Numbered from the stretch's first letter, positions 6,870 through 63,477 are shown. The stretch is DNA of 64,000 nucleotides from Candidatus Dojkabacteria bacterium (GCA_035370405.1 DAOOVT010000001.1:485-64484); one strand, 5' to 3'. Notes: a model not told the origin generated them from the sequence alone. Program-made: numbers and translations.

Positions 6870-6926
6870 GACTGCACAAAAACATTAGTTTAGTACAGTA
6901 ATAATACCATAATAAATTGATAAACA

Positions 6927-9526: not shown

Positions 9527-9596
9527 AACTCGTTGATTATATAATAAATATAAAGATTATGATAATAAGAATAAAACATGGTATTATGATTAAGCT

Positions 9597-23154: not shown

Positions 23155-23217
23155 GAAATTTTGCCTCCCCCTTAGTAATTAGTAATTTAGTAATATTGTT
23201 AATACCACTACAAAAAT

Positions 23218-23246
23218 TTGACATCATACTCACCAATAGTATATAT
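23218..23246 (+). promoter_or_regulatory. Near-consensus sigma70-type promoter upstream of the 23285 gene.
   Basis: TTGACA, a 16-17 nt spacer, then TATATA/ATATAT, about 40 nt upstream of the ATG. A TTAGTAA x3 tandem mini-repeat precedes it. Confidence 0.5.
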
Positions 23247-23284
23247 TTTTAATATTAAATAAAATGTCTGCCTAAAATACGCAT

Positions 23285-24421: not shown

Positions 24422-24440
24422 ACTAATATGAGGCAAATAC

Positions 24441-40660: not shown

Positions 40661-40794
40661 ATTTTTTTCCTTTCCTTTTAAAAAATATTTCTGAAGGGGA
40701 ATATACTTTCCATATATCACCCAGGATCGGTCAGAAATATATGAGATATTAAACAGCACGATTATACATATCAAAGGCCGTTAATGCAAATAAA

Positions 40795-44423: not shown

Positions 44424-46427
44424 TTAAATCAAACCATTTGATATCATCCAATCAATCATCGCTCTAGCAATAGCTACTGCATTGTAACTCTGCCCACCAT
44501 CTTCCAAAAATATGGTAAGAACATATTTGGGGTTTTCATATGGGAAAAATGTTGTAACCCAAGCATGTGTATGCTCATACTCTCCATCTTTGTTCAATTT
44601 CCCGAACTCTGCTGTCCCAGTTTTTGCAGCAACTTTAATCCTCATTCCTGCAACACCAGTTATAGTTGCCCTTCCTCCATTAACAGCATTAAACATTCCC
44701 TCTCTTACAACTTGCAAAGCATCAGCACTCACGATATTCTCATCTATATCCTCAAATGACACAAACTCCTCCTCTTTATTTTCATTAACAAAATATTTTG
44801 CCAAATGAGGCCTATGCAATGTTCCACCATTTGCAATAGCTGAAGTCCAATTTGCCATCTGCAATGGTGTTACCAATGTAATACCTTGTCCTATTACAGA
44901 ATTACAAGAGTCTCCTTCTGGATACCATACAGGTTCTAACCAAGGACTCGTTGTATTTGCCAACGCAATTTTATTTGCTGGGGACGGAAGTCTTCCAGGA
45001 GCTTCTCCTGGAAGATCTATACCTGTATATTTCCCTATCCCAAACCTTTCAAGGTACGGAACAAGAGCATTCATATCCCAATGACGAATCAACTCACAAA
45101 AATAAATATTTGAAGAAACAGATAGAGCATCAATCATATTTAAAGCTCCATACGCATGATTCCCATATTCCTGAAATGGTGCCCCACTTGAAAATGTATA
45201 CCCTGCACTACTAACATACACAGTATTTTTTGTTACAACTCCTGCATCCAAAGCTCCTGCTGCAACTATGGTCTTAAACGTAGAACCAGGAGGAACTTGT
45301 GCTGCTATTGCCCTATTAAGAAGAGGATTCTTGGGATCGTTTAACAATGCATCATATTCGCTTTTTGAAATACCTCCTACAAATGGATTGTTATCATATC
45401 CTGGAAACGAAACTAAAGACAAAATTTCTCCATTTGTAACATCTTCGAGTATTCCAGCTCCTCCAATTGCTTTGTAATCACTAATCCCCTCCTCTAAAAG
45501 AGAGTACAACTCTTTCTGTGCATTAATATCTATTGTTAAATACAAATTCTCTCCTGCTACAGGTTCTCTGAGAGTATATGGCTCATCTGACACTGTCTTC
45601 CCTACAGCATTCACCTCCCACGCAACTTGTCCATGTTCACCCAAAAGTTTTTCATCATACTCCCTCTCTATCCCAGTTATACCTATTGTATCAGTTATAT
45701 CTACATAATCCTTCTTCTCAAGATCTTCTGCTGTAACATCTCCCGTGTATCCCAAAACATGAGAGATTACATTCCCCGCAGGATAGTATCTTTTACTCCC
45801 ATCATCTATATACACACCTACTAGTTTATCTAAATTTGCCTTCACTTTTATCGCAGTATCATTATCTATATCTGTAGCTATTAGTATCTCTTGGAAATAT
45901 GGACTTTCTTTATGCACAGAAAGTATCTTTTCCATTATGGAAGAATACTCTGATTTTCCATCACCCTTGTTCTTCTTCCAATTATCTCCAAGTATTTCGG
46001 AAAGGGAATCAACCGTCTTCTGTAATTTTTCAGCCTCTATATATCCATCAGAATCTAAATAGTTTTCAATTAGAATATATACATTCATAGATGACACATT
46101 TTGTGCCAAAGCTATACCATTCCTATCTAAGATTGCACCTCTCAAAGCAGGTTCCGTTTTAATTTTCACCTTATTGGTCAGTGATTTATCAAGCATCTCT
46201 TCTCCTAATGCTACTTGTAGTGTAACTAAATCCTTTATTAAGATACCGAAGATACCTATGAATAGTAGGAACAAGGCAATGTAATTCCATGCTGGATTGA
46301 TATTATCCTCATGATTTTTTTTAACCGAATTGCGTAAATTTACTGCAAAGTATTTCCTACTTATGCGTATTCGAAATTTTTCTTTTTTCTTTTTCGGTTC
46401 AATTTTTTTAGAAATCTTTAAGTCCAT
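44424..46427 (-). CDS. mrdA: Penicillin-binding protein 2 (peptidoglycan D,D-transpeptidase).
   Basis: An N-terminal TM. STFKTI (SxxK), SVSSN (SxN), KTGTAE (KTG). Confidence 0.85.
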   Translation of the reverse strand: MDLKISKKIEPKKKKEKFRIRISRKYFAVNLRNSVKKNHEDNINPAWNYIALFLLFIGIFGILIKDLVTLQVALGEEMLDKSLTNKVKIKTEPALRGAILDRNGIALAQNVSSMNVYILIENYLDSDGYIEAEKLQKTVDSLSEILGDNWKKNKGDGKSEYSSIMEKILSVHKESPYFQEILIATDIDNDTAIKVKANLDKLVGVYIDDGSKRYYPAGNVISHVLGYTGDVTAEDLEKKDYVDITDTIGITGIEREYDEKLLGEHGQVAWEVNAVGKTVSDEPYTLREPVAGENLYLTIDINAQKELYSLLEEGISDYKAIGGAGILEDVTNGEILSLVSFPGYDNNPFVGGISKSEYDALLNDPKNPLLNRAIAAQVPPGSTFKTIVAAGALDAGVVTKNTVYVSSAGYTFSSGAPFQEYGNHAYGALNMIDALSVSSNIYFCELIRHWDMNALVPYLERFGIGKYTGIDLPGEAPGRLPSPANKIALANTTSPWLEPVWYPEGDSCNSVIGQGITLVTPLQMANWTSAIANGGTLHRPHLAKYFVNENKEEEFVSFEDIDENIVSADALQVVREGMFNAVNGGRATITGVAGMRIKVAAKTGTAEFGKLNKDGEYEHTHAWVTTFFPYENPKYVLTIFLEDGGQSYNAVAIARAMIDWMISNGLI

Positions 46428-46430
46428 AGT

Positions 46431-46934
46431 TTATGACAGTTTTATGTTTGATCTATTACCCTCTTTTCTAAATCTACTAGTAAATATTTCACATAGTATA
46501 ATTATTATCAAAGAAATAGCTGAGTACAAGACACAATTTTTTAATTCTGCTGAAGTTACGAGAGTAAACGCTCTATTCAAAAATAACGATGGAAGCATGG
46601 AAAAAAGAATGTAATATACCAGTAGGGTGAAGAATTTGACACCCCAAGAAAGTATTCCCACCTCTGTAGAAAAAAATATCGATACCAAAGAGAAGAATAT
46701 CAAGGCTAATAAGGCTGTTAAAAAATTAGTTCCTAACATGTAATGAGATGTAACATCAATAATGAGACATATTATGAACATCAAAGGAAAAAGAATTTTC
46801 CAATCAACTTTCCTATACAAAAACAAGAAGAAAACAAATGCGATATTTATACCAAGCAAATTAGAAAAAAAACTTTCCAAAAATATGAAGAGAAAAATCC
46901 CAACTATTGTGTATATTAGTTTTAATACAATCAT
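46431..46934 (-). CDS. mreD: Rod shape-determining protein MreD.
   Basis: A 167 aa polytopic membrane protein between mreC and mrdA. Confidence 0.6.
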   Translation of the reverse strand: MIVLKLIYTIVGIFLFIFLESFFSNLLGINIAFVFFLFLYRKVDWKILFPLMFIICLIIDVTSHYMLGTNFLTALLALIFFSLVSIFFSTEVGILSWGVKFFTLLVYYILFSMLPSLFLNRAFTLVTSAELKNCVLYSAISLIIIILCEIFTSRFRKEGNRSNIKLS

Positions 46935-46940
46935 ATTGTT

Positions 46941-47780
46941 CTATATTTCAACAAATACAGTAATTAAATTATCATAATTGATTAATGGATTTACATAACC
47001 AGTTTTTGATGTATTCGCTGGATTGTCAGATAGCCCTACTAGATATCCAAGTACTAGGTAATTTCCAATTTTTTCATCGTTAAGCACAACAACATCTCCC
47101 TCTTTAACATTTGCATCAGCAGACATATTTTCCACTTTGATACCATTGCCTGTCCCTATGACAACTGCTTTGCTTAGAATCGGTGGTTCAGAGGAAATGA
47201 CTGCATTCTCAACACCTGGTTGAGTGATTATTGCTTCAAAATTATTTCCTTTAGACAAGGGTAATTTTACTAGAGATCCAGTTTTATCCGATTTTATAAC
47301 TTGCCCAACATATACATTACCAATACTTACAACATTGTCCTGCTTCACTCCATCATCACTTCCAGCATTTATTTTTATATATTCGGAGTCATTTCTACCA
47401 AGCACTTTACAAGTAACATATTTTTTTGATATATCAGAAAGGTTTAATTGTTTTTTCAAAGAGTCATTCTCTTCCTTTAAGATTAAGTAGTAGGAATTGT
47501 TAATATCTTTTTCATACATATCAATTTTTAAGTTATTGTAATCTTCCATAAATTCACCCATCTTCACAAAATTTTGGAAATACCTCCTTACTCCCGTACC
47601 AATTTCCGCTCCATTATATGCCAAAGGCTCAAATACATATGATATTCCATTTCTAAGAGAGGTTACTAATCCAATACTATCTAGTAGTACAAAAATTATT
47701 CCTGCAAGTATACTCACAGATATATATACATATGTATTGTCAAAAACAGATTGAGTCTTTCTCATTTTCAAACAAAACAC
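46941..47780 (-). CDS. mreC: Rod shape-determining protein MreC.
   Basis: An N-terminal TM, a coiled-coil (LKKQLNLSD), and a beta-rich C-terminus. Position after mreB. Confidence 0.7.
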   Translation of the reverse strand: MFCLKMRKTQSVFDNTYVYISVSILAGIIFVLLDSIGLVTSLRNGISYVFEPLAYNGAEIGTGVRRYFQNFVKMGEFMEDYNNLKIDMYEKDINNSYYLILKEENDSLKKQLNLSDISKKYVTCKVLGRNDSEYIKINAGSDDGVKQDNVVSIGNVYVGQVIKSDKTGSLVKLPLSKGNNFEAIITQPGVENAVISSEPPILSKAVVIGTGNGIKVENMSADANVKEGDVVVLNDEKIGNYLVLGYLVGLSDNPANTSKTGYVNPLINYDNLITVFVEI

Positions 47781-47786
47781 ATTTAA

Positions 47787-48842
47787 TTAAACCAGCTCAT
47801 CCCATGATTTTTGTATTCTTTGGAGTAGATCTATGTGATCGAGCATTAGTGCTGTACCTTTAGCTGTTACAGACATAGGTTCATCAACTATTTTAACTGG
47901 CATATTAAGTTCTTCACTAAGGTATACATCCATTCCTCTTATCAATGCGCCCCCACCAGTAAGATATACACCTGAAGTAAGTAAATCCTTCAGAAGTTCT
48001 GGCGGAGTATCTTCTATGGCATCTTTTACAGATTCTGTTATTATTCCAATGGTATTCATGATTGCTTCTCTTATCTCTATGCTGTTAATTTCAACAGTTT
48101 TGGGTAATCCGGTAAGCAAATCACGTCCTTGCACACCCTGTTTCTTTTCCTTTTTTAGAGGAATAGCTGAACCCATGAGTATTTTAATATCTTCTGAACT
48201 TCTCTCACCTATCAGAACATTGTATTTATTCCTTATGTAATTAACGATATCCTCATCCATTTCATCTCCAGCCACTTTCATTGTTTTGTCAACAACAATA
48301 TCTCCGAGTGAAAATACTGCTATATCCGTAGTCCCTCCCCCTATATCAACAATCATGCTCCCTGAAGCATCTTCAACAGGAAGACCAGCCCCTACTGCAG
48401 CAGCCATAGATTCTTCAACTATGAAAACTTCCCTAGCTCCAGCAGTTTTTACTGCATCTATAACTGCTTGTCTTTCAACTTCGGTAACAGATGATGTTAC
48501 TCCAACAATAACTCTTGGCCTTGGTATCTTAAACCCCTTACTAAAGTATGTGTGAGCTTTCTTTATGAAGTGAGAAATCATTGCCTGTGTTGTATCAAAA
48601 TCTGAGATAACTCCATCTCTAAGAGGTCTTACTGCAACTATATTAGCTGGAGTTCTCCCTATCATCTGACGAGCTTCCTTCCCTACAGCAAGTACCATTT
48701 TTGTCCGCTTATCAACAGCTACAACTGAGGGTTCAGAGACAACAACACCATGATTTCTCATGTACACCATAGTATTGGCAGTACCTAAATCTATTCCAAA
48801 ATCATATGTAACTAATTCCCATAGGGAATCAAGCATACCCAT
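47787..48842 (-). CDS. mreB: Rod shape-determining protein MreB (actin-like ATPase).
   Basis: FGIDLGTANTMVY (phosphate 1), IVDIGGGTTDIAV (phosphate 2). Confidence 0.9.
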   Translation of the reverse strand: MGMLDSLWELVTYDFGIDLGTANTMVYMRNHGVVVSEPSVVAVDKRTKMVLAVGKEARQMIGRTPANIVAVRPLRDGVISDFDTTQAMISHFIKKAHTYFSKGFKIPRPRVIVGVTSSVTEVERQAVIDAVKTAGAREVFIVEESMAAAVGAGLPVEDASGSMIVDIGGGTTDIAVFSLGDIVVDKTMKVAGDEMDEDIVNYIRNKYNVLIGERSSEDIKILMGSAIPLKKEKKQGVQGRDLLTGLPKTVEINSIEIREAIMNTIGIITESVKDAIEDTPPELLKDLLTSGVYLTGGGALIRGMDVYLSEELNMPVKIVDEPMSVTAKGTALMLDHIDLLQRIQKSWDELV

Positions 48843-50171: not shown

Positions 50172-50248
50172 GCCGAAGTAGCTCAGTTGGTCAGAGCAGC
50201 TGTTTTGTAAACAGCAGGTCAAGAGTCCGAGTCTCTTCTTCGGCTCCA
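50172..50248 (+). tRNA. tRNA-Thr (anticodon UGU), with an unusual C at T-loop position 55.
   Basis: Acceptor GCCGAAG/CTTCGGC. Anticodon stem GCTGT/ACAGC with loop TTTGTAA. CCA encoded. T-loop TCCGAGT instead of TTCGAxT. Confidence 0.7.
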
Positions 50249-50252
50249 TTGT

Positions 50253-50338
50253 GCAGAGATGGCGGAGCGGTCAAACGCGGTGGACTGTAAATCCACTCCC
50301 TTCGGGGTTCATTGGTTCGAATCCAATTCTCTGCACCA
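50253..50338 (+). tRNA. tRNA-Tyr (anticodon GUA).
   Basis: Acceptor GCAGAGA/TCTCTGC. Anticodon stem GTGGA/TCCAC with loop CTGTAAA. Long variable arm. T-loop TTCGAAT. CCA encoded. Confidence 0.8.
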
Positions 50339-50369
50339 TCTATTATATATGTAACTTTATCTTCATCCC

Positions 50370-50378
50370 TGATATAAT
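50370..50378 (+). promoter_or_regulatory. Extended -10 promoter (TGaTATAAT) immediately upstream of tRNA-Thr(GGU).
   Basis: TGATATAAT ends 9 nt before the tRNA 5' end. Confidence 0.5.
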
Positions 50379-50387
50379 CGATTCACT

Positions 50388-50461
50388 GCTGGATTAGCTC
50401 AGTTGGTTAGAGCACATTCATGGTAAGAATGAGGTCCTGAGTTCGACTCTCAGATCCAGCT
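50388..50461 (+). tRNA. tRNA-Thr (anticodon GGU).
   Basis: Acceptor GCTGGAT/ATCCAGC. Anticodon stem CATTC/GAATG with loop ATGGTAA. T-loop TTCGACT. CCA not encoded. Confidence 0.8.
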
Positions 50462-50578
50462 CTCTCTTTAAGAAAAGAATATCGTACGAAATTATTTGAC
50501 CTGTGGAAATATTTCCAATATAATACGGCGATATTTCCCAATATACATAAATAAATCGTAATTTGCACAACTGTAAAA

Positions 50579-50743
50579 ATGGCTAAAGTAAAAAGGGACA
50601 TAATAGCTTTTAAGTGCTCAGAGTGTGGAGAAAGGAATTACACTCAGTTTAAAACTAAGAATGTCAAAGAAAAAATAGAAAAAAGAAAGTACTGTCCAGT
50701 ATGTAAAAAACATACAGTACACAAGGAGACCAAAATAAAATAA
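50579..50743 (+). CDS. rpmG: 50S ribosomal protein L33 (54 aa; below the ORF-track length cut-off).
   Basis: Translation MAKVKRDIIAFKCSECGERNYTQFKTKNVKEKIEKRKYCPVCKKHTVHKETKIK. The CxxC...CxxC zinc ribbon is typical of L33. Confidence 0.8.
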   Translation: MAKVKRDIIAFKCSECGERNYTQFKTKNVKEKIEKRKYCPVCKKHTVHKETKIK

Positions 50744-50766
50744 ATGGCTTGGCTCTTTACCAAGAT

Positions 50767-50842
50767 GGGCTCATAGTTTCAATTGGTAAAACAGCGGTCT
50801 CCAAAACCGTAGTTCACCGTTCGAGTCGGTGTGGGCCTGCCA
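50767..50842 (+). tRNA. tRNA-Trp (anticodon CCA).
   Basis: Acceptor GGGCTCA/TGGGCCT with two G-U pairs. Anticodon stem GCGGT/ACCGT with loop CTCCAAA. T-loop TTCGAGT. CCA encoded. Confidence 0.75.
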
Positions 50843-54261: not shown

Positions 54262-54287
54262 GCTACACTACTCTACTTTAAAGAATG

Positions 54288-54320
54288 AAGGGACTGTTTT
54301 TGGACAGTCCTTTTCTTTAT
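54288..54320 (+). terminator. Rho-independent terminator after rplL.
   Basis: AAGGGACTGT-TTTTGG-ACAGTCCTTT stem-loop (10 bp including one G-U pair), followed by TTTTCTTTATT. Confidence 0.7.
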
Positions 54321-54336: not shown

Positions 54337-54366
54337 TTGCTTCTTTCATATTCATTGGAATATAAT
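54337..54366 (+). promoter_or_regulatory. Sigma70-type promoter for the 7TM/ATP-grasp operon.
   Basis: TTGCTT, an 18 nt spacer, then TATAAT (54361-54366), 47 nt upstream of the ATG at 54413. A second TGATATAGC box lies at 54401-54409. Confidence 0.5.
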
Positions 54367-54412
54367 TACCTGTGTGATTTTGATATCTAAAATTATCATC
54401 TGATATAGCGAG

Positions 54413-55081
54413 ATGACATATTCCCCATTTACTTCATGGATTCTAGATAATGGTGTCTCTCAACAGACATTAGAACTTCTAGTATCTATAACTGTTGTTG
54501 CAACAATCGTAAGCATATTCAGATACATTTTTGGAGGAAAATCATATGGTATATATTCCCCAATTATTTTAGCAATAGCATACTCATATACTGGTCTTAA
54601 ATATGGACTAGCCATAACTGCCGTTGTCATAATAACAACCCTTGTCTCCTACTCGGTACTGAAAAAGATAAGAATGCATTACATTACAAGAATTGCAATA
54701 AATTACTGCCTTCTAGTAATTGCAATTCTCATGCTCATAATAGCTACCTACAAATATGATTTGGGCTTAAAAAATACATCTATGATATCCCCTCTAGCAC
54801 TTGTATCCATTGCAACTCTTTCTGATTTCTTTGTAAAACAATTTACCCAAAAATCCTTAAAAACTTCATTCTCTCCTCTCATAGGAACAATCGTAATAGC
54901 ATCAATCGGTTGGTACATAATAACTTCTGAGCAAATATCACAGTACATGATTAACAACCTCTGGATAATACCTCTACTCATATTCATAAATATACTCATA
55001 GGACAATTCAAAGAACTTAGAATTAAGGAAATCCTCAGATTTAATTCCATAGTTGGGAACAAGGACAATGCTCAAAAGTAA
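54413..55081 (+). CDS. Seven-transmembrane membrane protein, the membrane partner of an alpha-L-glutamate-ligase-like system.
   Basis: Seven predicted TM helices in 222 aa. The 3' end overlaps the start of the downstream ATP-grasp gene by 29 nt. No transglutaminase-like domain is present. Confidence 0.55.
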   Translation: MTYSPFTSWILDNGVSQQTLELLVSITVVATIVSIFRYIFGGKSYGIYSPIILAIAYSYTGLKYGLAITAVVIITTLVSYSVLKKIRMHYITRIAINYCLLVIAILMLIIATYKYDLGLKNTSMISPLALVSIATLSDFFVKQFTQKSLKTSFSPLIGTIVIASIGWYIITSEQISQYMINNLWIIPLLIFINILIGQFKELRIKEILRFNSIVGNKDNAQK

Positions 55082-56525
55082 AGGTTACAAAGAAATATTA
55101 GGTATCAACAGAAGGAATCAGGAATACATCCGTCCGTATAACTCTGCTAGAGCTAAAAATATTGCAGACAACAAAATTCTTACAAAAAAAATACTAACTG
55201 AAAATGGAATCTTAACACCTAAAATTTACAAAGTTGTAAAAGACAGAAAACAATTAGAATTTTTGAATTGGGATTCACTTCCTAAAAGTTTTGTAATTAA
55301 ACCTAACAAAGGCACAGGAGGCAATGGCATCATTATATTCTACGGGAAGAAAAAAGGACAAACAGCTTGGATAAGACCAAACGGAACTGTAATGTCTAAA
55401 TATGACATCTCCTTACATATTGCAAATATTCTTGATGGAAGATACTCCATGGGAAATAAAAAAGATACAGCAATCATAGAAGAAAGAGTCAAAACAGACC
55501 CTTTTCTTAAGCAATATTCATACAAAGGAGTTCCTGATATAAGGGTAATATGCTTCAAAGGAGTACCCATAATGGCCATGATACGAATTCCAACTAAAAG
55601 ATCAAATGGAACTGCAAATCTACATTCTGGAGCAATATGCACTGGTATAGATATAGCTACAGGAATTACCACATATTCTATGCAAATGGATACAAAAAGT
55701 ATATTTAGTGATGTATATGAAGATATAGAATATACTACAGACCTAGAAGATAATAAAAAGCTCAGTGGTATAACTATTCCTGATTGGAACAAAATACTCG
55801 AAATAGCTCTAAAGTGCCAAAAGGTTACAAAACTTGGATACATTGGAGTAGACATATCAATAGATGCAGAAAAAGGTCCTGTTGTTTTTGAATTAAACGC
55901 TAGACCAGGATTAGGAATACAAGTCGCCAATAAAGCAGGATTAAGATCTAGACTAGAACTAATAAAAGAGGTTGATGTAAAAAGTATCAGACACGGTATA
56001 AAGATTGCAAAAGATCTTTTTGGTGGAGAAATTGAGGAGAGTATAGAATCAATAAGTGGAAGAAAAGTAGTTAATATTATTGAAAAGGTAACATTATTTG
56101 ATAGACAAGCACTTTCTGTCAAAAAGAAAAATAAGAATAATAAACAACCCTCTAAGGTTTTTATGGATACAAGTATTCTCACATCTAGAATTACAGAAGC
56201 AACAGCAAATAGAATTGGTTTCCTTTCAACCACAAAATATTTTAATTCCTTAAACGTTCCTGAAAAATTCAATACACTTAAAGATGCTCAGAAGTATATT
56301 GATGAAAATATTCAAGCACTGACATTAGAAGAAGGAATAAAGAGGATTGCCAAAATTGCAGATGGCAATGATGTGAAGATACGCCCTGTAATAGAAATAT
56401 CTATGGAAATAGCTGAACAGGTTAGATCTCTCGATGTTATAATCGTCCCAGATTTAGAGTATCCTATATCTATGGGAAGAAATGAATTGAAAGGATATTT
56501 AATTGATACCACACATACTTTTTAA
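55053..56525 (+). CDS. Alpha-L-glutamate-ligase-like (RimK-related, TIGR02291-like) ATP-grasp enzyme fused to a C-terminal retropepsin-like (RimB/DUF785-like) domain.
   Basis: The N-terminal half has ILGINRRNQEYIRPYN...FVIKPNKGTGGNGIIIF...YKGVPDIRVICFKGVPIMAMIRIPTKRSNGTANLHSGAICTGID...ELNARPGLGIQVANKAGLRSRLELIKE. This matches my memory of Pseudomonas/Vibrio alpha-L-glutamate ligase-like proteins. The C-terminal approximately 170 aa has VFMDTSILTSRITEA and IRPVIEISMEIAEQVRSLDVIIVPDLEYPISMGRNELKGYLID, matching the retropepsin-like putative zinc protease family. Confidence 0.65.
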   Translation: MGTRTMLKSKGYKEILGINRRNQEYIRPYNSARAKNIADNKILTKKILTENGILTPKIYKVVKDRKQLEFLNWDSLPKSFVIKPNKGTGGNGIIIFYGKKKGQTAWIRPNGTVMSKYDISLHIANILDGRYSMGNKKDTAIIEERVKTDPFLKQYSYKGVPDIRVICFKGVPIMAMIRIPTKRSNGTANLHSGAICTGIDIATGITTYSMQMDTKSIFSDVYEDIEYTTDLEDNKKLSGITIPDWNKILEIALKCQKVTKLGYIGVDISIDAEKGPVVFELNARPGLGIQVANKAGLRSRLELIKEVDVKSIRHGIKIAKDLFGGEIEESIESISGRKVVNIIEKVTLFDRQALSVKKKNKNNKQPSKVFMDTSILTSRITEATANRIGFLSTTKYFNSLNVPEKFNTLKDAQKYIDENIQALTLEEGIKRIAKIADGNDVKIRPVIEISMEIAEQVRSLDVIIVPDLEYPISMGRNELKGYLIDTTHTF

Positions 56526-56527
56526 AT

Positions 56528-57520
56528 ATGAAGAAATATGAGGAATATTTGAAAGAGTGTGGAAATGTACATTTAGCATATTACATTTGGGCTGCTAATA
56601 AACTTGGAATTCACTATGAAGTTTTAGTAAAAGGACTCCTTGCACAATTTAGTGATGGAAATGCAATATGGCATATAATAAATACAGCTACTCCATTAAC
56701 AACAACTACGTCAACAACAATATGTAAGAGGAAGAATTTAACTCATATGGTTCTCGAGAGGAATTGTATCGCTGTCCCAAGACAAAAGACCCTACTCTCT
56801 TCCTCCGATGCTGTGAATTTTTTTAATGAATATAAAGATATAGTTATTAAGCCAACACAACAACTTGGAGGAAAGGGAGTATCTATCCTCCCACAGAGCG
56901 AACAAGAAGCATCTGAGGCTTTCGAAAGAGCATCATTAGCCTCTCATTCAAAAACATCTTCCAAAGTTATTGCAGAGCAATTTGTGCATGGACAAAATTA
57001 CAGATTTCTAGTTCTAGGGGATAGTGTTATAGCAGTAGCAAGAAGAAAATCAGCCCATGTTATAGGTGATGGAAAAAGTAATATCAAACAGCTCATAGAA
57101 CAAACAAACATAATTCGTAAAAATTCTTTGTTAAAGCCTATCATCATAGATGATGAGGTTAATCTAAAGCTAAAAAGAGATTTCCTATCATTGGACACTG
57201 TACCAAAAGCTGGACAAGAAATAATATTAAGATATAACTGCAATTTGACTACAGGAGGAACTACAGAAGAATGCATGAGTGAAGTTGACAATTACTATAA
57301 GGAAGTTGCTATAAACGCAGTTAAAATAGTAGGTGCAGAATTTGGAGGAGTAGACATTATTGCAAAAGACATATCCTCCATCGGAGAATTTGCTGTAAAT
57401 GAAATCAACTACAACCCTGGATTAAGACTCCATTACAAAGTTGATAAAGGTAATATTACTGATGTTGCTGTCCCAATAATGCAGTACATTAGAGATAAAT
57501 ATATAAACTTACCAAAATAG
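56528..57520 (+). CDS. Cyanophycin-synthetase-like ATP-grasp ligase (CphA G-domain homolog; no Mur-ligase domain).
   Basis: IVIKPTQQLGGKGVSI...NYRFLVLGDSVIAVARRKSAHVIGDGKSNIKQLIEQTN...YNCNLTTGGTTEE...GVDIIAKDIS...AVNEINYNPGLRLH. This parallels the CphA ATP-grasp motifs (VVVKP..GNHGRG; YRLLVVG..VAAARR.PA.V.GDG..T...LIE..N; NLSTGG; VEVNAGPGLRMH). Confidence 0.6.
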   Translation: MKKYEEYLKECGNVHLAYYIWAANKLGIHYEVLVKGLLAQFSDGNAIWHIINTATPLTTTTSTTICKRKNLTHMVLERNCIAVPRQKTLLSSSDAVNFFNEYKDIVIKPTQQLGGKGVSILPQSEQEASEAFERASLASHSKTSSKVIAEQFVHGQNYRFLVLGDSVIAVARRKSAHVIGDGKSNIKQLIEQTNIIRKNSLLKPIIIDDEVNLKLKRDFLSLDTVPKAGQEIILRYNCNLTTGGTTEECMSEVDNYYKEVAINAVKIVGAEFGGVDIIAKDISSIGEFAVNEINYNPGLRLHYKVDKGNITDVAVPIMQYIRDKYINLPK

Positions 57521-57527
57521 TACAAAA

Positions 57528-59234
57528 ATGCAAAAAAACACACAAGTACTGCAAGGGTTAAACCTCCTTTCGACAACTTCTCTAGTCACAATAAAAATTC
57601 AAAACAAAGAAAATGTAGAAAAACTACTAAAACAAATAACCTCCTACCACCCAATATTCATAGATAAATACCACTTTGAACAAAATAATCTCTTAATAGA
57701 AACCGCTATCCCATTCGTATGGAGAGAAGCATCAACATATATTCAAAAGCTATCGCAGGGAGAGCTATCATACAAAGATTGTAAGAAGAAAATAGTAGAA
57801 GACATAATAACCCGAAGACTAGCATCTATGTCTACTATTCCTGTTCTCCATTCAGCACACAAACAACAAAAAGAGATAACTCCAACAATAATCTCCGATT
57901 ACAACTCCTCGAAGAATAAGGCTACAGAATCTAAAGGATTTAATAGATATTACACATTAGGCTGTGGTAAGGAATCCCAAGTAATATATTCAATATCCTC
58001 TAGCAAAGATTCAAAAACTGCAAAACAAATACAAAGAGACAAATGGAGCACCAATATGCTAATGGAAAGACTTGGTCTTCCAATACCGAAATGGCAACTA
58101 GTAGGAAGCAAGGCTGATATAGACAAAATCTGGGATAGTTACACAAAACCAGTAGTCATAAAACCTACAGGCCTTGCAGGAGGTAATGGAGTAGTTCTAG
58201 GAATCAAAACAAAAGAACAATGCAAAAAAGCATTTGACTTTGCTCAAAAGGCAACAAATACATTTCCAAGAAGTGCATGGCAGAAAAAAATTATGATACA
58301 AGAACAAGTTCAAGGAGAAGATTACAGACTACTAATAGTCGATGGCAAATTTGAAGTAGGTACAAAAAGAATTCCAGCATTCGTAACTGGTGATGGAAAA
58401 AACAGCATAAAGAAATTAATAGAAGAAGCAAATAAAGATCCAAAAAGAGACCTATCTAACCCATCTCACACACTAAAACCAATAATCATTGACGATCCTC
58501 TACTAGATTATCTAAAACAACAAAAGCTATCTCTCGAAGAAATCCCTCAAAAGGGACAAAAAATACAACTTAGAAAAGTTGCAAGCATGAGTCAAGGAGG
58601 TATCACTGAAGATGTCACAGACCTTGTTGGAGCAGAAATTAGATACATCGCAGAAAGCATAGCTCAATCAATACATGCATTCACTCTGGGTGTAGATGTA
58701 CTTTGCAAAGACATCACTAAACCACTCACAAAGGAAAATGGAGCAATACTCGAGGTAAACACTATGCCAGAAGTATATCTCAACATATTCCCAGTAATAG
58801 GAGAAGAAAAAACAAATGTAATAGACACATATGTAGACAAACTTCTTTCTGGAAATAACACTAAAAGAATTGTAGTTGTAGGGAATCCATCAATAGATAT
58901 CTCTACAATGTTAAAAAGAAAAACATTCATCTGCTCATACTTAAAACAAGATGACGTCGTCGGAGAATATAGAGACAAAGAATTAAGAATAAATGGCCTT
59001 ACAATAAACAAAGAGCTAAAAAAAGAAAAAGCTCTTGAGGCACTAAAAATAAATGCTGCATTAGATGCAATAATACTACATCATAGAAATTGGGAAGAAG
59101 TAGAAGAAACAGGTTTAGGTTTTGAAAAAATAGACCTATTAATAATTACAAAAGATATGAGAAAAGACAAAAGATTTAATCAAATTTTGAGATACAGACT
59201 AAGAGGACTAATTACAAAGATTAAAATTATTTAA
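57528..59234 (+). CDS. Cyanophycin-synthetase-like ATP-grasp ligase with a unique approximately 160 aa N-terminal domain (CphA N+G-domain-like; no Mur-ligase domain).
   Basis: VVIKPTGLAGGNGVVLGI...DYRLLIVDGKFEVGTKRIPAFVTGDGKNSIKKLIEEANKDPKR...ASMSQGGITEDVTDLVGAEIRYIAESIA...GVDVLCKDITKPLTKENGAILEVNTMPEV. This is a strong resemblance to the CphA G-domain, including the DPRRG-like NKDPKRD loop. Confidence 0.65.
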   Translation: MQKNTQVLQGLNLLSTTSLVTIKIQNKENVEKLLKQITSYHPIFIDKYHFEQNNLLIETAIPFVWREASTYIQKLSQGELSYKDCKKKIVEDIITRRLASMSTIPVLHSAHKQQKEITPTIISDYNSSKNKATESKGFNRYYTLGCGKESQVIYSISSSKDSKTAKQIQRDKWSTNMLMERLGLPIPKWQLVGSKADIDKIWDSYTKPVVIKPTGLAGGNGVVLGIKTKEQCKKAFDFAQKATNTFPRSAWQKKIMIQEQVQGEDYRLLIVDGKFEVGTKRIPAFVTGDGKNSIKKLIEEANKDPKRDLSNPSHTLKPIIIDDPLLDYLKQQKLSLEEIPQKGQKIQLRKVASMSQGGITEDVTDLVGAEIRYIAESIAQSIHAFTLGVDVLCKDITKPLTKENGAILEVNTMPEVYLNIFPVIGEEKTNVIDTYVDKLLSGNNTKRIVVVGNPSIDISTMLKRKTFICSYLKQDDVVGEYRDKELRINGLTINKELKKEKALEALKINAALDAIILHHRNWEEVEETGLGFEKIDLLIITKDMRKDKRFNQILRYRLRGLITKIKII

Positions 59235-59269
59235 ACAAACATAATTAATTTATTAGGAAATATAAATCT

Positions 59270-60238
59270 ATGCGATTCTTAATTATTGAAAAAAGACAAA
59301 GGATCAATAATAACAGATTCAAAACAGATATACCAACAGGCTCTGAGAGACTAATAGAGGAACTGAAAAAAAGAAATATAGAATATGATTTCATATACAA
59401 TGATCAGCTAGAATTCATCTTTAAACCATATACTATGAATATCCTTGCAAATGGGAAAGATATTCTGGAATACTCCCATATACTATTCAGAGGACACGCC
59501 CTTCACAATGACAAAGAATACCATTTCAAACGATATATCATAGATTATGTTGACAATTACAATAAAAAAAATACAAATAACAAAATTCTTGTACAAAATG
59601 CAGATGCAATAAAAAAACTCCCATACTATAACAAGATAGCAATGGCACAACTATGCTATGAAAATAATCTCCCCTACTTCACCACATATTATAGACCAGA
59701 TGGAAATTACTCCAATTCACAAAGAAGCATTCTAAATGAATATCCTTTAGTTATAAAGGAATACACAGGAGAGAATAGAATAGAATTAATTGATGGAGTT
59801 GAAAAAATCAAAAAGAATGTCTTCAAGCTTAACAATTTAGATGATTATTCACAACAAGGACTTAAAGATCAAAACCTAGCTAATTTCTTCATTCAAGAAT
59901 TTTCCAATGCAGGAGAAGACTACAGGATATTTGTAAAACTTGGAAAAGTTGTCGCTGGATGGAAAAGAAAAAGCACCAAGAATTTTATAACTGTAAATCA
60001 AGGAGAATATGAAATATACAATGAACCCAATGAAGAAATAAAGACTATTGCAGAAAGAATGAGCAATGTCTTAAACGCTGATTTTGTAGCAGTCGACTTT
60101 ATGTATATAGGAGACAAACCATATATACAAGAGCTTTCCCTACACCCTGGATACAAAGCTTACGAAACAAAAGCAAAGGGAACTCCCATAAATATTGCAG
60201 AACAAATAATATCGGCTTTTAAAGTCCCACCTTTCTAA
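59270..60238 (+). CDS. RimK/LysX/GshB-type ATP-grasp ligase.
   Basis: GEDYRIFVKLGKVVAGWKRKS...VNQGEYEIYN...DFVAVDFMYIGDKPYIQELSLHPGYKAY, the ATP-grasp C-terminal core with an RimK-like DxRxxV...NxxxG layout. Confidence 0.55.
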   Translation: MRFLIIEKRQRINNNRFKTDIPTGSERLIEELKKRNIEYDFIYNDQLEFIFKPYTMNILANGKDILEYSHILFRGHALHNDKEYHFKRYIIDYVDNYNKKNTNNKILVQNADAIKKLPYYNKIAMAQLCYENNLPYFTTYYRPDGNYSNSQRSILNEYPLVIKEYTGENRIELIDGVEKIKKNVFKLNNLDDYSQQGLKDQNLANFFIQEFSNAGEDYRIFVKLGKVVAGWKRKSTKNFITVNQGEYEIYNEPNEEIKTIAERMSNVLNADFVAVDFMYIGDKPYIQELSLHPGYKAYETKAKGTPINIAEQIISAFKVPPF

Positions 60239-61379
60239 ACATACTAAGCCACTGATCTTTTGTAGGAACATTAGATGCTCTTGGAATTAAACCATCTTCT
60301 ACCCATTCACACTGTTTAATAGAAATTTTCCCAGAATAAAGACTATTGTACAATGATGGATTCTTTGCAATACTAGAAGATACTTTTCTAAAACCTCTAA
60401 AATACACTATATCTTTTACATATATTCCAGCTTTTGATGTATCAGAAAGCCCTCTTTTCACCCTATACGCAACATTAAACGCTGACTGCTTCGGAAATAT
60501 TCCATGTAAACAGTTATACAATTCTCTAAACGAAAGATTCCCTCCTACATATATCGCATATGTTAAAGCAACCTTCCTTTTTAAACTACTTTCAGTCAAA
60601 ACATTTACATTACTTTCATTCCACGTAGCAAGTCCCTCTTCTGCATCTAAATAGGCTGGTAAATTTGAGTTACCTAGAGCAGGAAACCCAGTATTTAGAC
60701 CATTAACAGTTCTCAAAACATGTGTTCCGACCTCATGAATTAATGTTTTCTTTAACATAAGAGCATCTCTCTTTATTCCTTCATCAACAAAAATCTCTTT
60801 GCTCTTTATCCCTACTCTAACAGAATTCTTTCGAATATTTGATGATTTTTCTACTTTCCAACCATTCAAATTCAACATCGTAAATATATTTTGAAAAATT
60901 CCCAATATCTCATCATACTCATACAATCTTCTATCCTTTGATTTATCTACCTTTACAAGATTGTAACTTTTGGTATTACCTCTAAGTACTCTACATGAAT
61001 TTCTAAATAGCTTCCCGCTTGGAAATCCGAATCTTTCAATGGAGATATCTGTAATAGCTTCATTATTCCCAACTGAGTTAATAAGATCATTAGCTTGTTT
61101 CTTAGATGATATTAATGATATGTAAAAATCAGAAATTCTTGGATCTACATCTATTATTTCCTCTACAGACAGAAGTTTTCTGAAAATTTCATCATTCCTG
61201 TTTCGAACGGTTTTGTATTTAAAAACAGGATTATATGTATCAGATTCAAAAAATTTCTCTTCCTCCTCTTCCAAATTAATAGGAGTAAGTACAAATGAAG
61301 TAGGAATTCTCAATTGACCAAGAAGTACAGATACTTCATCTAGTTTCATTTGTTTTATACTTTTATTCAATATTTTCAT
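60219..61379 (-). CDS. DUF1704/QEGLA-motif gluzincin metallopeptidase (MATCAP-like carboxypeptidase family).
   Basis: HEVGTH (HExxH), then about 27 residues later AEEGLATW (the QEGLA-type third zinc ligand). 386 aa. Convergent with, and overlapping by 20 nt, the 3' end of the ATP-grasp operon. Confidence 0.6.
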   Translation of the reverse strand: MKILNKSIKQMKLDEVSVLLGQLRIPTSFVLTPINLEEEEEKFFESDTYNPVFKYKTVRNRNDEIFRKLLSVEEIIDVDPRISDFYISLISSKKQANDLINSVGNNEAITDISIERFGFPSGKLFRNSCRVLRGNTKSYNLVKVDKSKDRRLYEYDEILGIFQNIFTMLNLNGWKVEKSSNIRKNSVRVGIKSKEIFVDEGIKRDALMLKKTLIHEVGTHVLRTVNGLNTGFPALGNSNLPAYLDAEEGLATWNESNVNVLTESSLKRKVALTYAIYVGGNLSFRELYNCLHGIFPKQSAFNVAYRVKRGLSDTSKAGIYVKDIVYFRGFRKVSSSIAKNPSLYNSLYSGKISIKQCEWVEDGLIPRASNVPTKDQWLSMFRKVGL

Positions 61380-61395
61380 ATACTATAACTAAACA

Positions 61396-62415
61396 TTATT
61401 TCCTAAAATCACGATTAAAAGTAAATGTTCTTTCTCCTCTGGCTATTAATTCTAAAGCTATCCCTGTTCCCTTTACAACGCAATATATAGGCTCATCAGC
61501 TACATGTGAAGGAACACCTGTTGCTCTGGAAAATAACTTATCTAAATTTCTCAACTCTGATGTTCCGCCACTCATAACCATTCCCCTATCTATTATATCG
61601 GCTGAAAGTTCTGGAGGAGTTTTTTCCAATACATTTCTAATACTTCTAATAATTGATTTAAGTGGAAAATCTATTGCTTTTGCAACATCATTTGAATCAA
61701 CAATTATCGATTTTGGCATACCGGCCCCAACATCTCTTCCTCTCACCTCCATCTGTGCAGGATCTCTAACTTCAACAGCAGACCCTATTTTTATTTTAAT
61801 ATTCTCAGCTGTCTGCTCACCGATCATAATCCCTTTCTTCTTCCTCATATATGAAATTATTGCTTCGTTCAAAGAATCCCCTGCAACACGCAATGACTCA
61901 TACTCAACTATTCCATCAAGTGACATAACTGCAATTTCTGTAGTTCCTCCACCCATATTCACAATCATATTTCCAGAAGATGTATGTATCGGAAGTTGAG
62001 CTCCTAATGCAGCAAGAAGTGGTTCGGGTAGTAATGTTATACTTTTCGCTCCAACAGAGTTTGCCGCTTTTAATACAGCTCTCTCCTCAACAGAAGTAAT
62101 TCCTGCAGGTACACTTATAACCACATCAGGCTTAAAAAATCTAGACTTTCCTAGTGCTTTATCAAAAAAATATCTCAACAAAGCCTCTGTAACCCTAGAA
62201 TCTGCTATTACTCCACTTCTTAGTGGCCTTTTAGCAATAATATTCTCAGGGGTCTTTCCAATCATTTCTTTTGCCTCCTTTCCAACTGCTATTACTGTGT
62301 ATGTATTTACATCAATAGCTACAACAGTAGGTTCAGAGAGCACAATCCCCTCTCCCTGTACAAAAACCACAGAGTTCGCAGTTCCTAAATCTAACCCTAA
62401 CTTCTTTCCAAGCAT
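61396..62415 (-). CDS. Second MreB-like actin-family ATPase paralog.
   Basis: LGLDLGTANSVVFV and IVNMGGGTTEIAV (actin-fold phosphate motifs). 339 aa. Its stop lies 16 nt upstream of the DUF1704 peptidase start. Confidence 0.8.
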   Translation of the reverse strand: MLGKKLGLDLGTANSVVFVQGEGIVLSEPTVVAIDVNTYTVIAVGKEAKEMIGKTPENIIAKRPLRSGVIADSRVTEALLRYFFDKALGKSRFFKPDVVISVPAGITSVEERAVLKAANSVGAKSITLLPEPLLAALGAQLPIHTSSGNMIVNMGGGTTEIAVMSLDGIVEYESLRVAGDSLNEAIISYMRKKKGIMIGEQTAENIKIKIGSAVEVRDPAQMEVRGRDVGAGMPKSIIVDSNDVAKAIDFPLKSIIRSIRNVLEKTPPELSADIIDRGMVMSGGTSELRNLDKLFSRATGVPSHVADEPIYCVVKGTGIALELIARGERTFTFNRDFRK

Positions 62416-62445: not shown

Positions 62446-63477
62446 CTATTCAAAATTCAAAAGCATTGCTTCCTTCATTGCATCAGCAGTCTCTCTAGCA
62501 ATCTTGGAAACTTTAAGACTACTTTCTAAAGCACTATCCAGCAATTCTTGCTTTTTCTTCTCAGCTTCAATTCTTCTCTCCCTTATGGGACTTAATTTTT
62601 GATTCATTACTTCAAACAATCTTTGCTTAACCTCTATGTCTTTAATATTTCCCTCTCTATACCTCCTTTTCATCTCTTCCACTTCATCTTTATCATCATT
62701 AAAAAAGTCATGATACATGAATGCTACATTACCTTCTACTCTACCTGGATCACTTGCATGCACTCTATTTGGGTCCGTGTACACCTTAAAAACCTTTTCC
62801 TTAAGTTCCTCTTCACTATCAGACAAATAGATGCAATTACCAAGACTTTTTCCCATCTTTTCTGCACCATCAATTCCGGGAACATTCACAGATGTCCCTA
62901 GCAATGCTTCTGGGAGATTCAAAACATCTTTCCCATAGGCTGAATTAAACTTCCTAGCTATCTCCCTTGCATCCTCTATCATTGGAAGTTGGTCTTTTCC
63001 AACAGGAACTAAATCAGCATTTACACTTAATATATCAGCAGCTTGATGAACAGGATACAGAAAGAAACCAAGTGGAGTTGAATCAGAAAACCCCTTTTGT
63101 AAAAGTTCTGTTTTAATCGTTGGATTATGTTTAACCTTCTGTACCGTGGTAAAATTTGACAAATATATGAATATCTCATCTATTTGCGGTACTTCACTCT
63201 GAATAAAGACAGAAGTCTTCTCAAAATCTATACCACACGCATAATAATCACACAAAAGTTCATATACGCTCTCCCTTATCTTTTCTGGATTATTTGCATT
63301 GTCTGTAAAAGCTTGAATATTAGCAATTTCTACAAATGTCTCATACTCATCTTGCAACTTAACTCTGTTCTGTATAGAACCAATAAAATGACCAATGTGC
63401 AATTTACCAGTTGGTCTATCTCCTGTCAATATTCTTTTCCTCTTCTGAATTTCTTTCATAGCTAAGTATTTTAACAA
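62446..63477 (-). CDS. trpS: Tryptophan--tRNA ligase.
   Basis: TGDRPTGKLHIGHFIGS (HIGH) and KMGKSLGN (KMSKS). 343 aa. Confidence 0.9.
   Translation of the reverse strand: MLKYLAMKEIQKRKRILTGDRPTGKLHIGHFIGSIQNRVKLQDEYETFVEIANIQAFTDNANNPEKIRESVYELLCDYYACGIDFEKTSVFIQSEVPQIDEIFIYLSNFTTVQKVKHNPTIKTELLQKGFSDSTPLGFFLYPVHQAADILSVNADLVPVGKDQLPMIEDAREIARKFNSAYGKDVLNLPEALLGTSVNVPGIDGAEKMGKSLGNCIYLSDSEEELKEKVFKVYTDPNRVHASDPGRVEGNVAFMYHDFFNDDKDEVEEMKRRYREGNIKDIEVKQRLFEVMNQKLSPIRERRIEAEKKKQELLDSALESSLKVSKIARETADAMKEAMLLNFE

Follow-up and report, generated by a model that had tools for sequence, protein, structure and literature searches.

A stretch of 64,000 nucleotides (nt) from a Candidatus Dojkabacteria bacterium (GCA_035370405.1, DAOOVT010000001.1:485-64484; hereafter the window) contains a cluster of six genes, g1 to g6, that encode a membrane protein, four ATP-grasp proteins and, on the opposite strand, a zinc peptidase. 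The host belongs to WS6 within the candidate phyla radiation (CPR), and the window has about 33% G+C. We propose that g1-g6 form one module, a membrane-associated, ribosome-independent machine that would make and trim a peptide or a poly-amino-acid; the chances that this proposal is right seem to us about even. It is built on the domain identities of the six proteins, on the fusion of a ligase with a protease domain in g2, and on the conserved clustering of the genes. A first-pass annotation, made from the sequence alone, had read the combination of several ligases, two kinds of peptidase and a membrane partner as pointing to the synthesis and trimming of a non-ribosomal peptide or tag, and this is still the best reading. 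The genes, and the two parts of g2, are located as follows.

54413-55081, plus strand: g1, 222 amino acids (aa), a polytopic membrane protein, the seven-transmembrane (7TM) module of RloB.
55053-56525, plus strand: g2, 490 aa from a TTG start, an RloC-type ATP-grasp fused to a retropepsin-like domain.
55053-56039, plus strand: N-terminal part of g2, the RloC-type (alpha-L-glutamate-ligase-like) ATP-grasp domain.
56040-56525, plus strand: C-terminal part of g2, a retropepsin-like (RloA/RimB/DUF785-type) aspartic-protease domain with an inserted helical hairpin.
56528-57520, plus strand: g3, 330 aa, a stand-alone ATP-grasp of the cyanophycin-synthetase G-domain clade.
57528-59234, plus strand: g4, 568 aa, a CphA2-like ligase composed of N and G domains and a truncated, inactive M domain.
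59270-60238, plus strand: g5, 322 aa, a divergent RimK-family ATP-grasp.
60219-61379, minus strand: g6, 386 aa, a zinc peptidase of the MATCAP/DUF1704 family.

The map of open reading frames (ORFs) bears out five tightly packed genes that converge on a gene for a DUF1704/MATCAP gluzincin (PF08014), and hidden Markov model (HMM) searches place g2-g5 among the ATP-grasp ligases and g6 among the gluzincins, as first annotated. The spacing given earlier holds for the 29-nt overlap of g1 and g2, for the gaps of 7 nt (g3-g4) and 35 nt (g4-g5) and for the 20-nt convergent overlap of g5 and g6, but the second gap (g2-g3) is 2 nt and not 3. The 29-nt overlap is counted from the TTG codon. An in-frame ATG at 55068, which reduces the overlap to 14 nt, is the start of g2 in an identical JGI gene call (P0001, 485 aa), so that the ORF from TTG is five residues longer than the deposited one; this ATG is likely the true start.

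A 7TM protein that carries an inactive transglutaminase domain was reportedly linked with a RimK-like ATP-grasp and an aspartyl protease in the 2009 amidoligase survey of Iyer et al. The g1 protein matches the 7TM_transglut family PF14402 (67 bits, profile positions 52-247 of 248), and about seven hydrophobic segments are seen in a hydropathy scan. It matches the NCBIfam RloB model NF052267 at positions 310-506 of 508 only (54 bits; cut-off 900). Because only the 7TM part aligns and 222 aa leave no room for more, the transglutaminase domain is absent, and g1 is the 7TM module of RloB only. The end of g1 overlaps the start of g2 also in two relatives (L001 and L003).

The ATP-grasp part of g2 (residues about 11-305) matches PF14397 with 239.6 bits (cut-off 31.4) and the alpha-L-glutamate ligase-like model TIGR02291 with 298.7 bits, slightly under the cut-off of 314.2. 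Its Mg/ATP motifs, KPNKGTGGNG and VFELNARPG, are intact, and g2 orthologues across Dojkabacteria are 63-75% identical. The last 185 or so residues match no Pfam family even at E ≤ 10; searches at this threshold with the isolated C-terminus of g2, the N- and C-termini of g4 and the N-terminus of g5 gave noise only, and neither PF05618 nor PF14401 (RLAN) was found in these regions. The alignment of g2 homologues reveals a conserved FMDTGxLTSRI motif in the C-terminal part. In an AlphaFold (AF2) model of this part (pLDDT 84), which has an inserted pair of helices, the top Foldseek matches are the Pseudomonas periplasmic aspartic peptidases RloA2 and RloA (E 4e-5), and further top matches (E 4e-5 to 1e-3) are the DUF785 protein 2pma, Ddi1 retroviral-protease-like domains and HIV protease. 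A profile of the same region finds RloA2 (9g59) with E 2.7e-5 and RloA with E 1.2e-4, and its DTG is aligned to the catalytic DTG. The Asp and Thr of the motif are invariant; DTG is present in 110 of the 120 homologues, while the window has DTS. Based on the structure and profile searches, the retropepsin-like identity of the g2 C-terminus, recognized already in the first-pass annotation together with its fusion to an alpha-L-glutamate-ligase-like ATP-grasp, is correct: g2 joins, in one polypeptide, an RloC-type ligase and a retropepsin-like domain of the RloA/RimB type. The N-terminus of g2 (MLKSKGYKEILGINRR...) is not hydrophobic and has no signal peptide, and the peptidase, being the C-terminus of the ligase, is not a separate protein.

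The closest experimental reference for these two genes is the rlo operon, which encodes a secreted retropepsin-like peptidase RloA, a protein RloB combining an inactive transglutaminase with seven transmembrane helices, and a cytoplasmic ATP-grasp RloC (Lormand et al., bioRxiv 10.1101/2025.03.18.643919). Pseudomonas without all three RloA paralogs does not grow at low osmolarity and is defective in its antibiotic resistance, in forming biofilms and in cell shape; if rloB or rloC is deleted, growth at low osmolarity returns in full and the remaining defects are relieved in part. RloA cleaves runs of at least eight Glu residues, as the cytoplasmic RimB does for the products of RimK, and 96% of RloB hits come from Proteobacteria (bioRxiv 10.1101/2025.03.18.643919). 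The 7TM protein, the ligase and a QEGLA/retropepsin peptidase had been named at first pass as a known but functionally uncharacterised proteobacterial trio. The actual trio is RloA, RloB and RloC, QEGLA being found in a different ATP-grasp operon (Mesorhizobium, below), and genetics and biochemistry of the trio exist for Pseudomonas (bioRxiv 10.1101/2025.03.18.643919). The membership of the 7TM protein stands insofar as g1 matches the 7TM module of RloB, but g1 comes without the transglutaminase domain. The fusion in g2 itself ties a ligase activity to a protease activity, and it provides a natural "Rosetta stone" that supports the inference made in Pseudomonas that RloC and RloA-type proteases share one target molecule.

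The next two genes had been described as two CphA-like ligases. Both are indeed related to CphA by HMM, but g4 is specifically CphA2-like and g3 corresponds to the G domain only. On the cyanophycin synthetase models TIGR02068 and NF010623, g3 scores 212-219 bits and g4 242-245 bits against cut-offs of 850-877, in the G-domain region only; the g3 match to NF010623 (219 bits) covers profile positions 167-470 of 871. Thus, g3 is a G domain alone, without N and M domains, and its motifs KPTQQLGGKG, NYR and NEINYNPG are conserved in 63 orthologues. Both proteins give further matches, of 138-171 bits, to the ATP-grasp half of GshAB and to that of Ngg (N-acetylglutaminylglutamine synthetase). For g4, the top Foldseek match of the AF2 model (pLDDT 88) is cyanophycin synthetase 2 of Gloeothece (7ta5; 598 columns, TM 0.69/0.68, 23% identity), followed by CphA1 and Stanieria CphA2, and a profile search finds Stanieria CphA2 (8fxh) with E 3.5e-53 through profile position 536. 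The C-terminal part of g4 (about 120 aa) contains no GxxGK[ST] P-loop. From the end-to-end match to 7ta5 and the absence of a C-terminal P-loop, it follows that g4 is laid out like CphA2, with a catalytic G domain between an N domain and a truncated M domain.

CphA2 is a processive polymerase, in which the G domain phosphorylates the C-terminal carboxylate of the growing chain and adds the next unit (PMC10273328). Residue roles in Stanieria CphA2 (StCphA2), taken from the same source (PMC10273328), were mapped onto g4 by an HMM alignment at about 23% identity, using 35 sequences of the g4 family:

StCphA2 R308, contacts cyanophycin: g4 R267, invariant.
StCphA2 D362, putative incoming-substrate site: g4 D322, invariant.
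StCphA2 R389, putative incoming-substrate site: g4 R349, Arg in 34 of 35.
StCphA2 S395, putative incoming-substrate site: g4 S355, invariant.
StCphA2 N393, putative incoming-substrate site: g4 S353, invariant Ser.
StCphA2 D212, salt bridge to the Arg side chain: variable in the g4 family (E 14, T 7, Q 6, N 3, K 3, D 1, R 1).
StCphA2 H208, touches two guanidinium groups: Lys in 28 of 35.

The equivalents of R308, D362, R389 and S395, which serve catalysis or touch the backbone, are thus invariant or almost so. These data bear on another explanation of the cluster, that of a cyanophycin (Asp-Arg) synthesis or recycling pathway, in which a nitrogen store would be polymerised from beta-Asp-Arg dipeptides or Asp by g4 and g3 and mobilised by the peptidases. 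CphA2 and CphA1 are the best sequence and structure matches of g4, homologues are labelled cyanophycin synthetase in their sources, and several putative incoming-substrate residues are conserved. However, the scores are far under the NCBIfam cut-offs (245 against 877), there is neither an active M domain nor a P-loop for Arg addition, the Arg-binding D212 is not conserved, the equivalent of H208 is mostly Lys, and N393 is replaced by an invariant Ser. The cluster contains no cyanophycinase or isoaspartyl dipeptidase, and the partner genes are of the Rlo/RimK type, which is tied to poly-Glu. Taken together, these features make a cyanophycin pathway quite improbable. The variable Arg-binding residue, the dead M domain, the absence of cyanophycinase genes and the poly-Glu-type partners argue against cyanophycin and, weakly, for an acidic chain; an acidic polymer would thus be the more probable product of the two.

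A search of g4 against 1.84 billion cluster representatives yielded about nine full-length clusters of its family and a more distant subfamily of 515-543 aa with 33-45% identity. Outside the family, the G domain of g4 has its nearest relatives in large proteins that contain two or three domains of this kind in a row. In the set P0373-P0401, many proteins of 770-2400 aa combine 2-3 tandem CphA-G-like ATP-grasp domains with an acylphosphatase, AMP-binding (adenylation), LPG_synthase_C, MmgE/PrpD or PGA_cap domain, and they seem to be assembly lines of several ligases, as yet uncharacterised. Since such tandem relatives exist, the use of several CphA-G-type ligases in one pathway can be considered a recurring design.

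The last gene of the operon, g5, matches the RimK family PF08443 (36.8 bits, cut-off 21) and falls under the cut-off of TIGR00768 (50.7 bits, cut-off 143.4). In the alignment with RimK (7qyr), the Mg-ligand motif E-x-N is changed to E-x-S and the arginine of HRGG to Q or K, and 66 orthologues share both changes. g2, g3 and g4 retain the customary Lys, Arg, Asp and E-x-N motifs of ATP-grasp enzymes. Hence the four ATP-grasp genes of the first-pass annotation comprise three ligases with intact motifs and one divergent member.

The peptidase gene g6 matches PF08014 (MATCAP, formerly DUF1704) with 95.3 bits (cut-off 27), and its score of 108.1 bits on the QEGLA model TIGR02421 is under the cut-off of 338.65. 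The profile of the g6 family finds human MATCAP (7z5g) with E 6e-19, with HE(V/I)GTH and EEGLA aligned to the human motifs, and HEVGTH and EEGLA are invariant in 32 g6 orthologues. The first-pass description of g6 as an HExxH/QEGLA peptidase is correct at the level of the DUF1704/MATCAP gluzincins, but the zinc motif is HExxxH (HEVGTH) and the second motif is EEGLA. As judged from these alignments, g6 retains the zinc and catalytic residues of MATCAP carboxypeptidases. It is shorter than the QEGLA proteins of Mesorhizobium and Vibrio (386 aa versus 617-663 aa).

One proteobacterial operon combining QEGLA with an ATP-grasp was inspected. On the Mesorhizobium plasmid NZ_CP080529.1 (L006, 3959-7656), genes for an N-formylglutamate amidohydrolase, a 617-aa protein of the QEGLA/MATCAP family and a glutathione-synthetase (GshB)-like ATP-grasp form a tight operon; on a Vibrio plasmid, the QEGLA gene stands alone. 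In phmmer, g2-g5 gave no match to the GshB-like ligase of the Mesorhizobium operon. In Photobacterium damselae, low salinity induces the adjacent genes for GshB (38-fold) and QEGLA (28-fold), and also RimK (52-fold) (PMC10308900). The Dojkabacteria cluster and the proteobacterial QEGLA/GshB operon together indicate that an association of MATCAP-family peptidases with ATP-grasp ligases exists in no fewer than two unrelated contexts. A literature search found no paper joining bacterial MATCAP/DUF1704 proteins with ATP-grasp ligases, and the search on MATCAP in prokaryotes gave eukaryotic reviews only.

The conservation of the cluster was assessed by a genome scan with the g6 alignment, taking one genome per species. 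It gave 97 relatives of g6, in Dojkabacteria-type genomes only, and the best 80 of the 97 loci were examined, all of which have the same gene order. The genomes bearing g6 are deposited as Dojkabacteria, WS6, Patescibacteria, Saccharibacteria, Microgenomates or without a label. Likewise, the best 120 matches of three homologue searches were Dojkabacteria-type proteins only. Across the class, g2, g4 and g6 share 52-75% identity with their orthologues. In the loci that are long enough, as analyzed by local phmmer, the MATCAP gene and the gene of an MreB paralog (MreB2) lie on one strand and face g5-g4-g3-g2-g1 on the other; the order of g1-g5 is constant in every such locus, while the flanks vary, in support of a single module. 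In 71 genomes, the sequence extends for 1.5 kb or more past the MATCAP gene on its downstream side; g5 faces MATCAP in 69 of them, mostly at a distance of at most 10 nt. The rplL gene is upstream of g1 in 38 of 43 loci and missing in the other five.

In some genomes, inserts of 0.1-3.8 kb separate g5 from g6; they include an HD-domain gene or a methyltransferase-like gene with a histidine kinase gene. Two loci (L014, 11215-19452, and L013, 11177-14987) have an insert directly after the MATCAP gene with the methyltransferase-like gene and a polytopic histidine kinase. Judged by sequence only, four more ORFs in L014 seem to resemble a YcaO-type cyclodehydratase, a nitroreductase/dehydrogenase, a C39-like peptidase and an ABC-F ATPase, and these would form a modified-peptide gene set.

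Because these loci came from one class, a more distant case was sought by a metagenome scan seeded with the distant 515-543-aa subfamily of g4. It found a contig from activated sludge with 33% G+C (L088), whose organism is far more divergent (29% identity for rplJ, 59% for rplL). Here, all six genes are clustered in a new order, with 31-47% identity to g1-g6: rplL and rplJ (opposite strand), g1, g2, g3, a 264-aa gene (other strand), g5, MATCAP (other strand), a 161-aa gene, g4 and then a pseudouridine synthase gene. The two additional ORFs embedded in the cluster (6106-6900, minus strand, 264 aa; 9201-9686, minus strand, 161 aa) have no Pfam match and could be lineage-specific extra components. 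Judged by gene content and order, this single contig is the strongest evidence for g1-g6 as one functional set. The conservation of the neighbourhood in related genomes is thus seen both in the facing of g5 and MATCAP and in the clustering of all six genes in L088.

A possible objection is that the genes are functionally unrelated and stay together through inherited order in a small, slowly rearranging genome. Indeed, synteny extends over the whole nusG-uvrA region in several Dojkabacteria, and nearly all the evidence comes from one class. Yet the set is intact while flanks and inserts vary, its genes overlap or nearly abut, and the reordered L088 retains all six of them and loses the neighbours. 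Moreover, three parts of the set are independently linked in Pseudomonas, and the fusion in g2 physically joins two of them. Inherited order as the whole explanation is accordingly very improbable.

Between rplL and g1, two elements were read from the sequence:

54287-54314, plus strand: intrinsic-terminator-like hairpin with a 12-bp stem followed by a T run, closing the rplJ-rplL unit.
54337-54366, plus strand: promoter-like TTGCTT-18 nt-TATAAT upstream of g1.

The promoter scan of the window found 41 promoter-like sites against 46 expected in shuffled sequence, and the g1 site, having a weak -35 box, fails the -35 criterion of the scan and is not listed by it. With its weak -35 box and the chance-level frequency of such sites in AT-rich DNA, the element alone proves nothing. 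However, a TATAAT box is found between rplL and g1 in 42 of the 42 related loci where rplL precedes g1, and the related loci displayed have a GC-rich hairpin with a T run after rplL and before the TATAAT. Hence the promoter placed at 54337-54366 by the first-pass annotation exists as an element with a conserved TATAAT, although by itself it is no better than chance, and the conserved terminator and TATAAT between rplL and g1 indicate that g1-g5 are most likely a transcription unit of their own, separate from rplJL.

Upstream of g6, two further genes are found on the same strand, with 16 nt between g6 and MreB2 and 30 nt between MreB2 and trpS:

61396-62415, minus strand: the MreB paralog MreB2, 339 aa (PF06723, 429 bits).
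62446-63477, minus strand: trpS, 343 aa, a clear TrpS match.

The window also holds a canonical cell-shape cluster at 44424-48842 (minus strand), with mreB (351 aa, 47787-48842), mreC, a 167-aa ORF and a PBP2-type transpeptidase gene, so that MreB2, which is 41% identical to the canonical MreB, is a second, divergent copy. The 167-aa ORF has no Pfam match and is possibly mreD. MreB2 adjoins the MATCAP gene in all Dojkabacteria loci examined, and both MreB2 and trpS are absent from the L088 cluster. The earlier placing of the MreB paralog and trpS beside the peptidase is thus right for Dojkabacteria, where they are conserved neighbours, but does not extend to the rearranged contig; because the L088 cluster lacks both, they are probably only neighbours and not part of the system.

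The genomic neighbours are also relevant for another explanation, RimK-type tagging of protein C-termini, with the retropepsin and the MATCAP-like carboxypeptidase as erasers, in parallel to TTL/TTLL and MATCAP on tubulin. The candidate targets are L7/L12, S6, the 7TM protein itself and the MreB paralog. Both g2 and g5 are relatives of RimK; RimK and RimB do the same on the ribosomal protein S6 (bioRxiv 10.1101/2025.03.18.643919); and MATCAP, whose catalytic motifs g6 keeps, is a carboxypeptidase of protein tails. The position beside rplJ-rplL in 38 of 43 Dojkabacteria loci and in L088, as well as the constant MreB2-MATCAP adjacency in Dojkabacteria, could be understood in the same way. On the other hand, in about 80 loci compared, no conserved acidic or aromatic C-terminal tail was found on L7/L12, MreB2, g1 or the enzymes. 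MreB2 and trpS are missing from the L088 cluster, a conserved terminator and promoter separate rplL from g1, and a CphA2-type enzyme with a polymer-binding N domain suits a free polymer better than a protein tag. Protein tagging is, in our opinion, an unlikely explanation.

Under the proposed module, the ligases would act in series on one chain. The CphA2-like g4, perhaps paired with the G-only g3, would lengthen the backbone at its C-terminus, and the RimK-like g2, possibly with g5, would add acidic residues (Glu or Asp). The retropepsin domain of g2 would cleave within acidic runs, as RloA and RimB cut poly-Glu, and the MATCAP-like g6 would take off C-terminal residues as a carboxypeptidase; both peptidases together might fix the chain length or recycle the product. 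The g1 protein would anchor the complex at the membrane and may present the product or pass it outward.

Several points weigh against this scheme. Every chemical step is derived from homology. The residue mapping from CphA2 to g4, at about 23% identity in an HMM alignment, may be imprecise, and the analogy with Rlo may be limited. The protease activity of g2 is uncertain in the window and in L088, since DTS and DTN, respectively, replace DTG. The substitution of both the Mg ligand and the catalytic-loop arginine of RimK makes the ligase role of g5 doubtful; this protein may be atypical or non-catalytic, and possibly no ligase at all. In L014, the MATCAP gene is at least 8 kb from any g5. Finally, all supporting genomes but one belong to one class and the rearranged case is a single contig, so that the conserved order could in part be inheritance.

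A small defined peptide or envelope component, with one residue added by each ligase, should also be considered. It might be an osmolyte-like di- or tripeptide (cf. Ngg, NAGGN) or a peptide side chain attached to a precursor of the wall or membrane on which the 7TM protein acts. The presence of four different ligases suggests as many different bonds, the matches of g3 and g4 to the halves of GshAB and NAGGN synthetase (138-171 bits) point in this direction, and the tandem-ligase relatives resemble assembly lines. PF14397 is named for its association with sugar transfer. The osmotic, cell-shape and beta-lactam phenotypes of Rlo mutants (bioRxiv 10.1101/2025.03.18.643919) and the induction of QEGLA and a GshB-like gene at low salinity (PMC10308900) are compatible with such a product. 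But polymerases are the only enzymes known to have the N-G-M architecture of g4 (PMC10273328), an RloA-type retropepsin requires long acidic runs, and the constant neighbours include no gene for a glycosyltransferase or flippase and none of the Mur type. We consider a small peptide rather unlikely.

A more specific form of the proposed module is an undescribed biopolymer, cyanophycin-like, arginine-free, probably acidic and possibly branched, built wholly by ATP-grasp ligases. The CphA2-like polymerase and its G-only partner would make the backbone, side chains or tails would be attached or lengthened by the RimK/RloC-like ligases, and the assembly would take place at the membrane on the RloB-type 7TM protein, with the retropepsin (endo) and the bacterial MATCAP (exo) sizing the polymer. 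This form is tentative and unlikely. If true, a biochemical role would be at hand for bacterial MATCAP homologues for the first time, together with an approach to the product of RloB and RloC.

The family of each part and the Rlo core are already known. Two kinds of features are new: first, the RloC-retropepsin fusion and the 7TM-only RloB; second, the fact that within a CPR class these are consistently joined by a CphA2-like and a G-only ligase, a divergent RimK-like protein and a MATCAP-type peptidase of short length. The cluster unites enzymes of Rlo/RimK poly-glutamylation, cyanophycin-synthetase-type polymerases and bacterial relatives of the tubulin carboxypeptidase MATCAP. The related Dojkabacteria loci sit on contigs of only about 0.7-0.76 Mb, and the module of about 7 kb is kept in nearly every sampled genome; since such small genomes still keep it, its product is probably important for the cell. 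The system is compact and rich in soluble enzymes, so that its chemistry could be reconstituted. If the product were defined, bacterial biochemistry would gain a new non-ribosomal polymer or tag, and the Rlo phenotypes in pathogens, namely osmotic tolerance, antibiotic sensitivity and cell shape, could find an explanation.

Several other features of the window deserve mention. PADLOC gave no hits and thus no match to anti-phage defence, and Rfam found tRNAs only and no regulatory RNA. A tRNA cluster at 50172-50842 (plus strand; Thr-TGT, Tyr-GTA, Thr-GGT, Trp-CCA) is directly upstream of the nusG-rplK-rplA-rplJ-rplL block; its Thr-GGT tRNA is called by ARAGORN and is below the Rfam gathering threshold. 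An ORF of 416 aa at 39524-40774 (minus strand) combines ribosomal protein S2 (PF00318, residues 65-272) with a domain similar to the C-terminal domain of the RNA polymerase alpha subunit (PF03118, residues 355-415), a fusion that is unusual for S2. No Pfam family is matched at E ≤ 1e-5 by four consecutive ORFs at 21940-26336 (plus strand; 404, 378, 326 and 304 aa), and in this region the GC skew climbs to about zero between strongly negative flanks. A 399-aa ORF at 34089-35288 is likewise without a Pfam match.

The cluster can be compared with four known systems. With RloABC of Pseudomonas and Vibrio it shares the 7TM module of RloB (g1), a match to the RloC family (g2; PF14397, and TIGR02291 slightly under its cut-off), and, in the C-terminal domain of g2, the RloA fold with a DTG..TS motif; the two genes are adjacent and overlap. 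Unlike RloB with its inactive transglutaminase, g1 has no such domain. The protease, which in RloA is separate and secreted, is fused here to the cytoplasmic ligase and has no signal peptide, and three more ATP-grasp genes and a MATCAP-type peptidase are added, in a CPR host.

Similarity to the RimK-RimB pair lies in the combination of a cytoplasmic RimK-family ligase with a cytoplasmic retropepsin that trims Glu tails, here fused in g2, and in the RimK-like g5. In contrast to that pair, g2 and g5 are below the RimK family cut-offs, catalytic-site residues of g5 are changed, a membrane partner is present, and no S6-like target was identified.

As in CphA2 and CphA1, g4 has N, G and truncated M domains (TM 0.69 over about 600 columns) and keeps the equivalents of R308, D362, R389 and S395, while g3 corresponds to the G domain. 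The differences are the low identity (about 23%), scores below the equivalog cut-offs, the variable equivalent of D212 and the replacement of N393 by Ser, the lack of N and M domains in g3, and the absence of cyanophycinase genes from the cluster. Compared with CphA1, g4 lacks an active Mur-ligase-type M domain and resembles CphA2 with its truncated M.

Finally, g6 shares PF08014 with MATCAP (KIAA0895L) and the QEGLA/DUF1704 proteins, and its HExxxH and EEGLA motifs align with human MATCAP. It is shorter than QEGLA proteins (386 aa versus about 620 aa) and under the TIGR02421 cut-off (108 versus 339). Its partner ligases belong to other ATP-grasp families, as seen by phmmer, and there is no tubulin. 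In the tubulin cycle of MATCAP, in the Mesorhizobium QEGLA operon and in the Dojkabacteria cluster alike, the peptidase is paired with ATP-grasp ligases.

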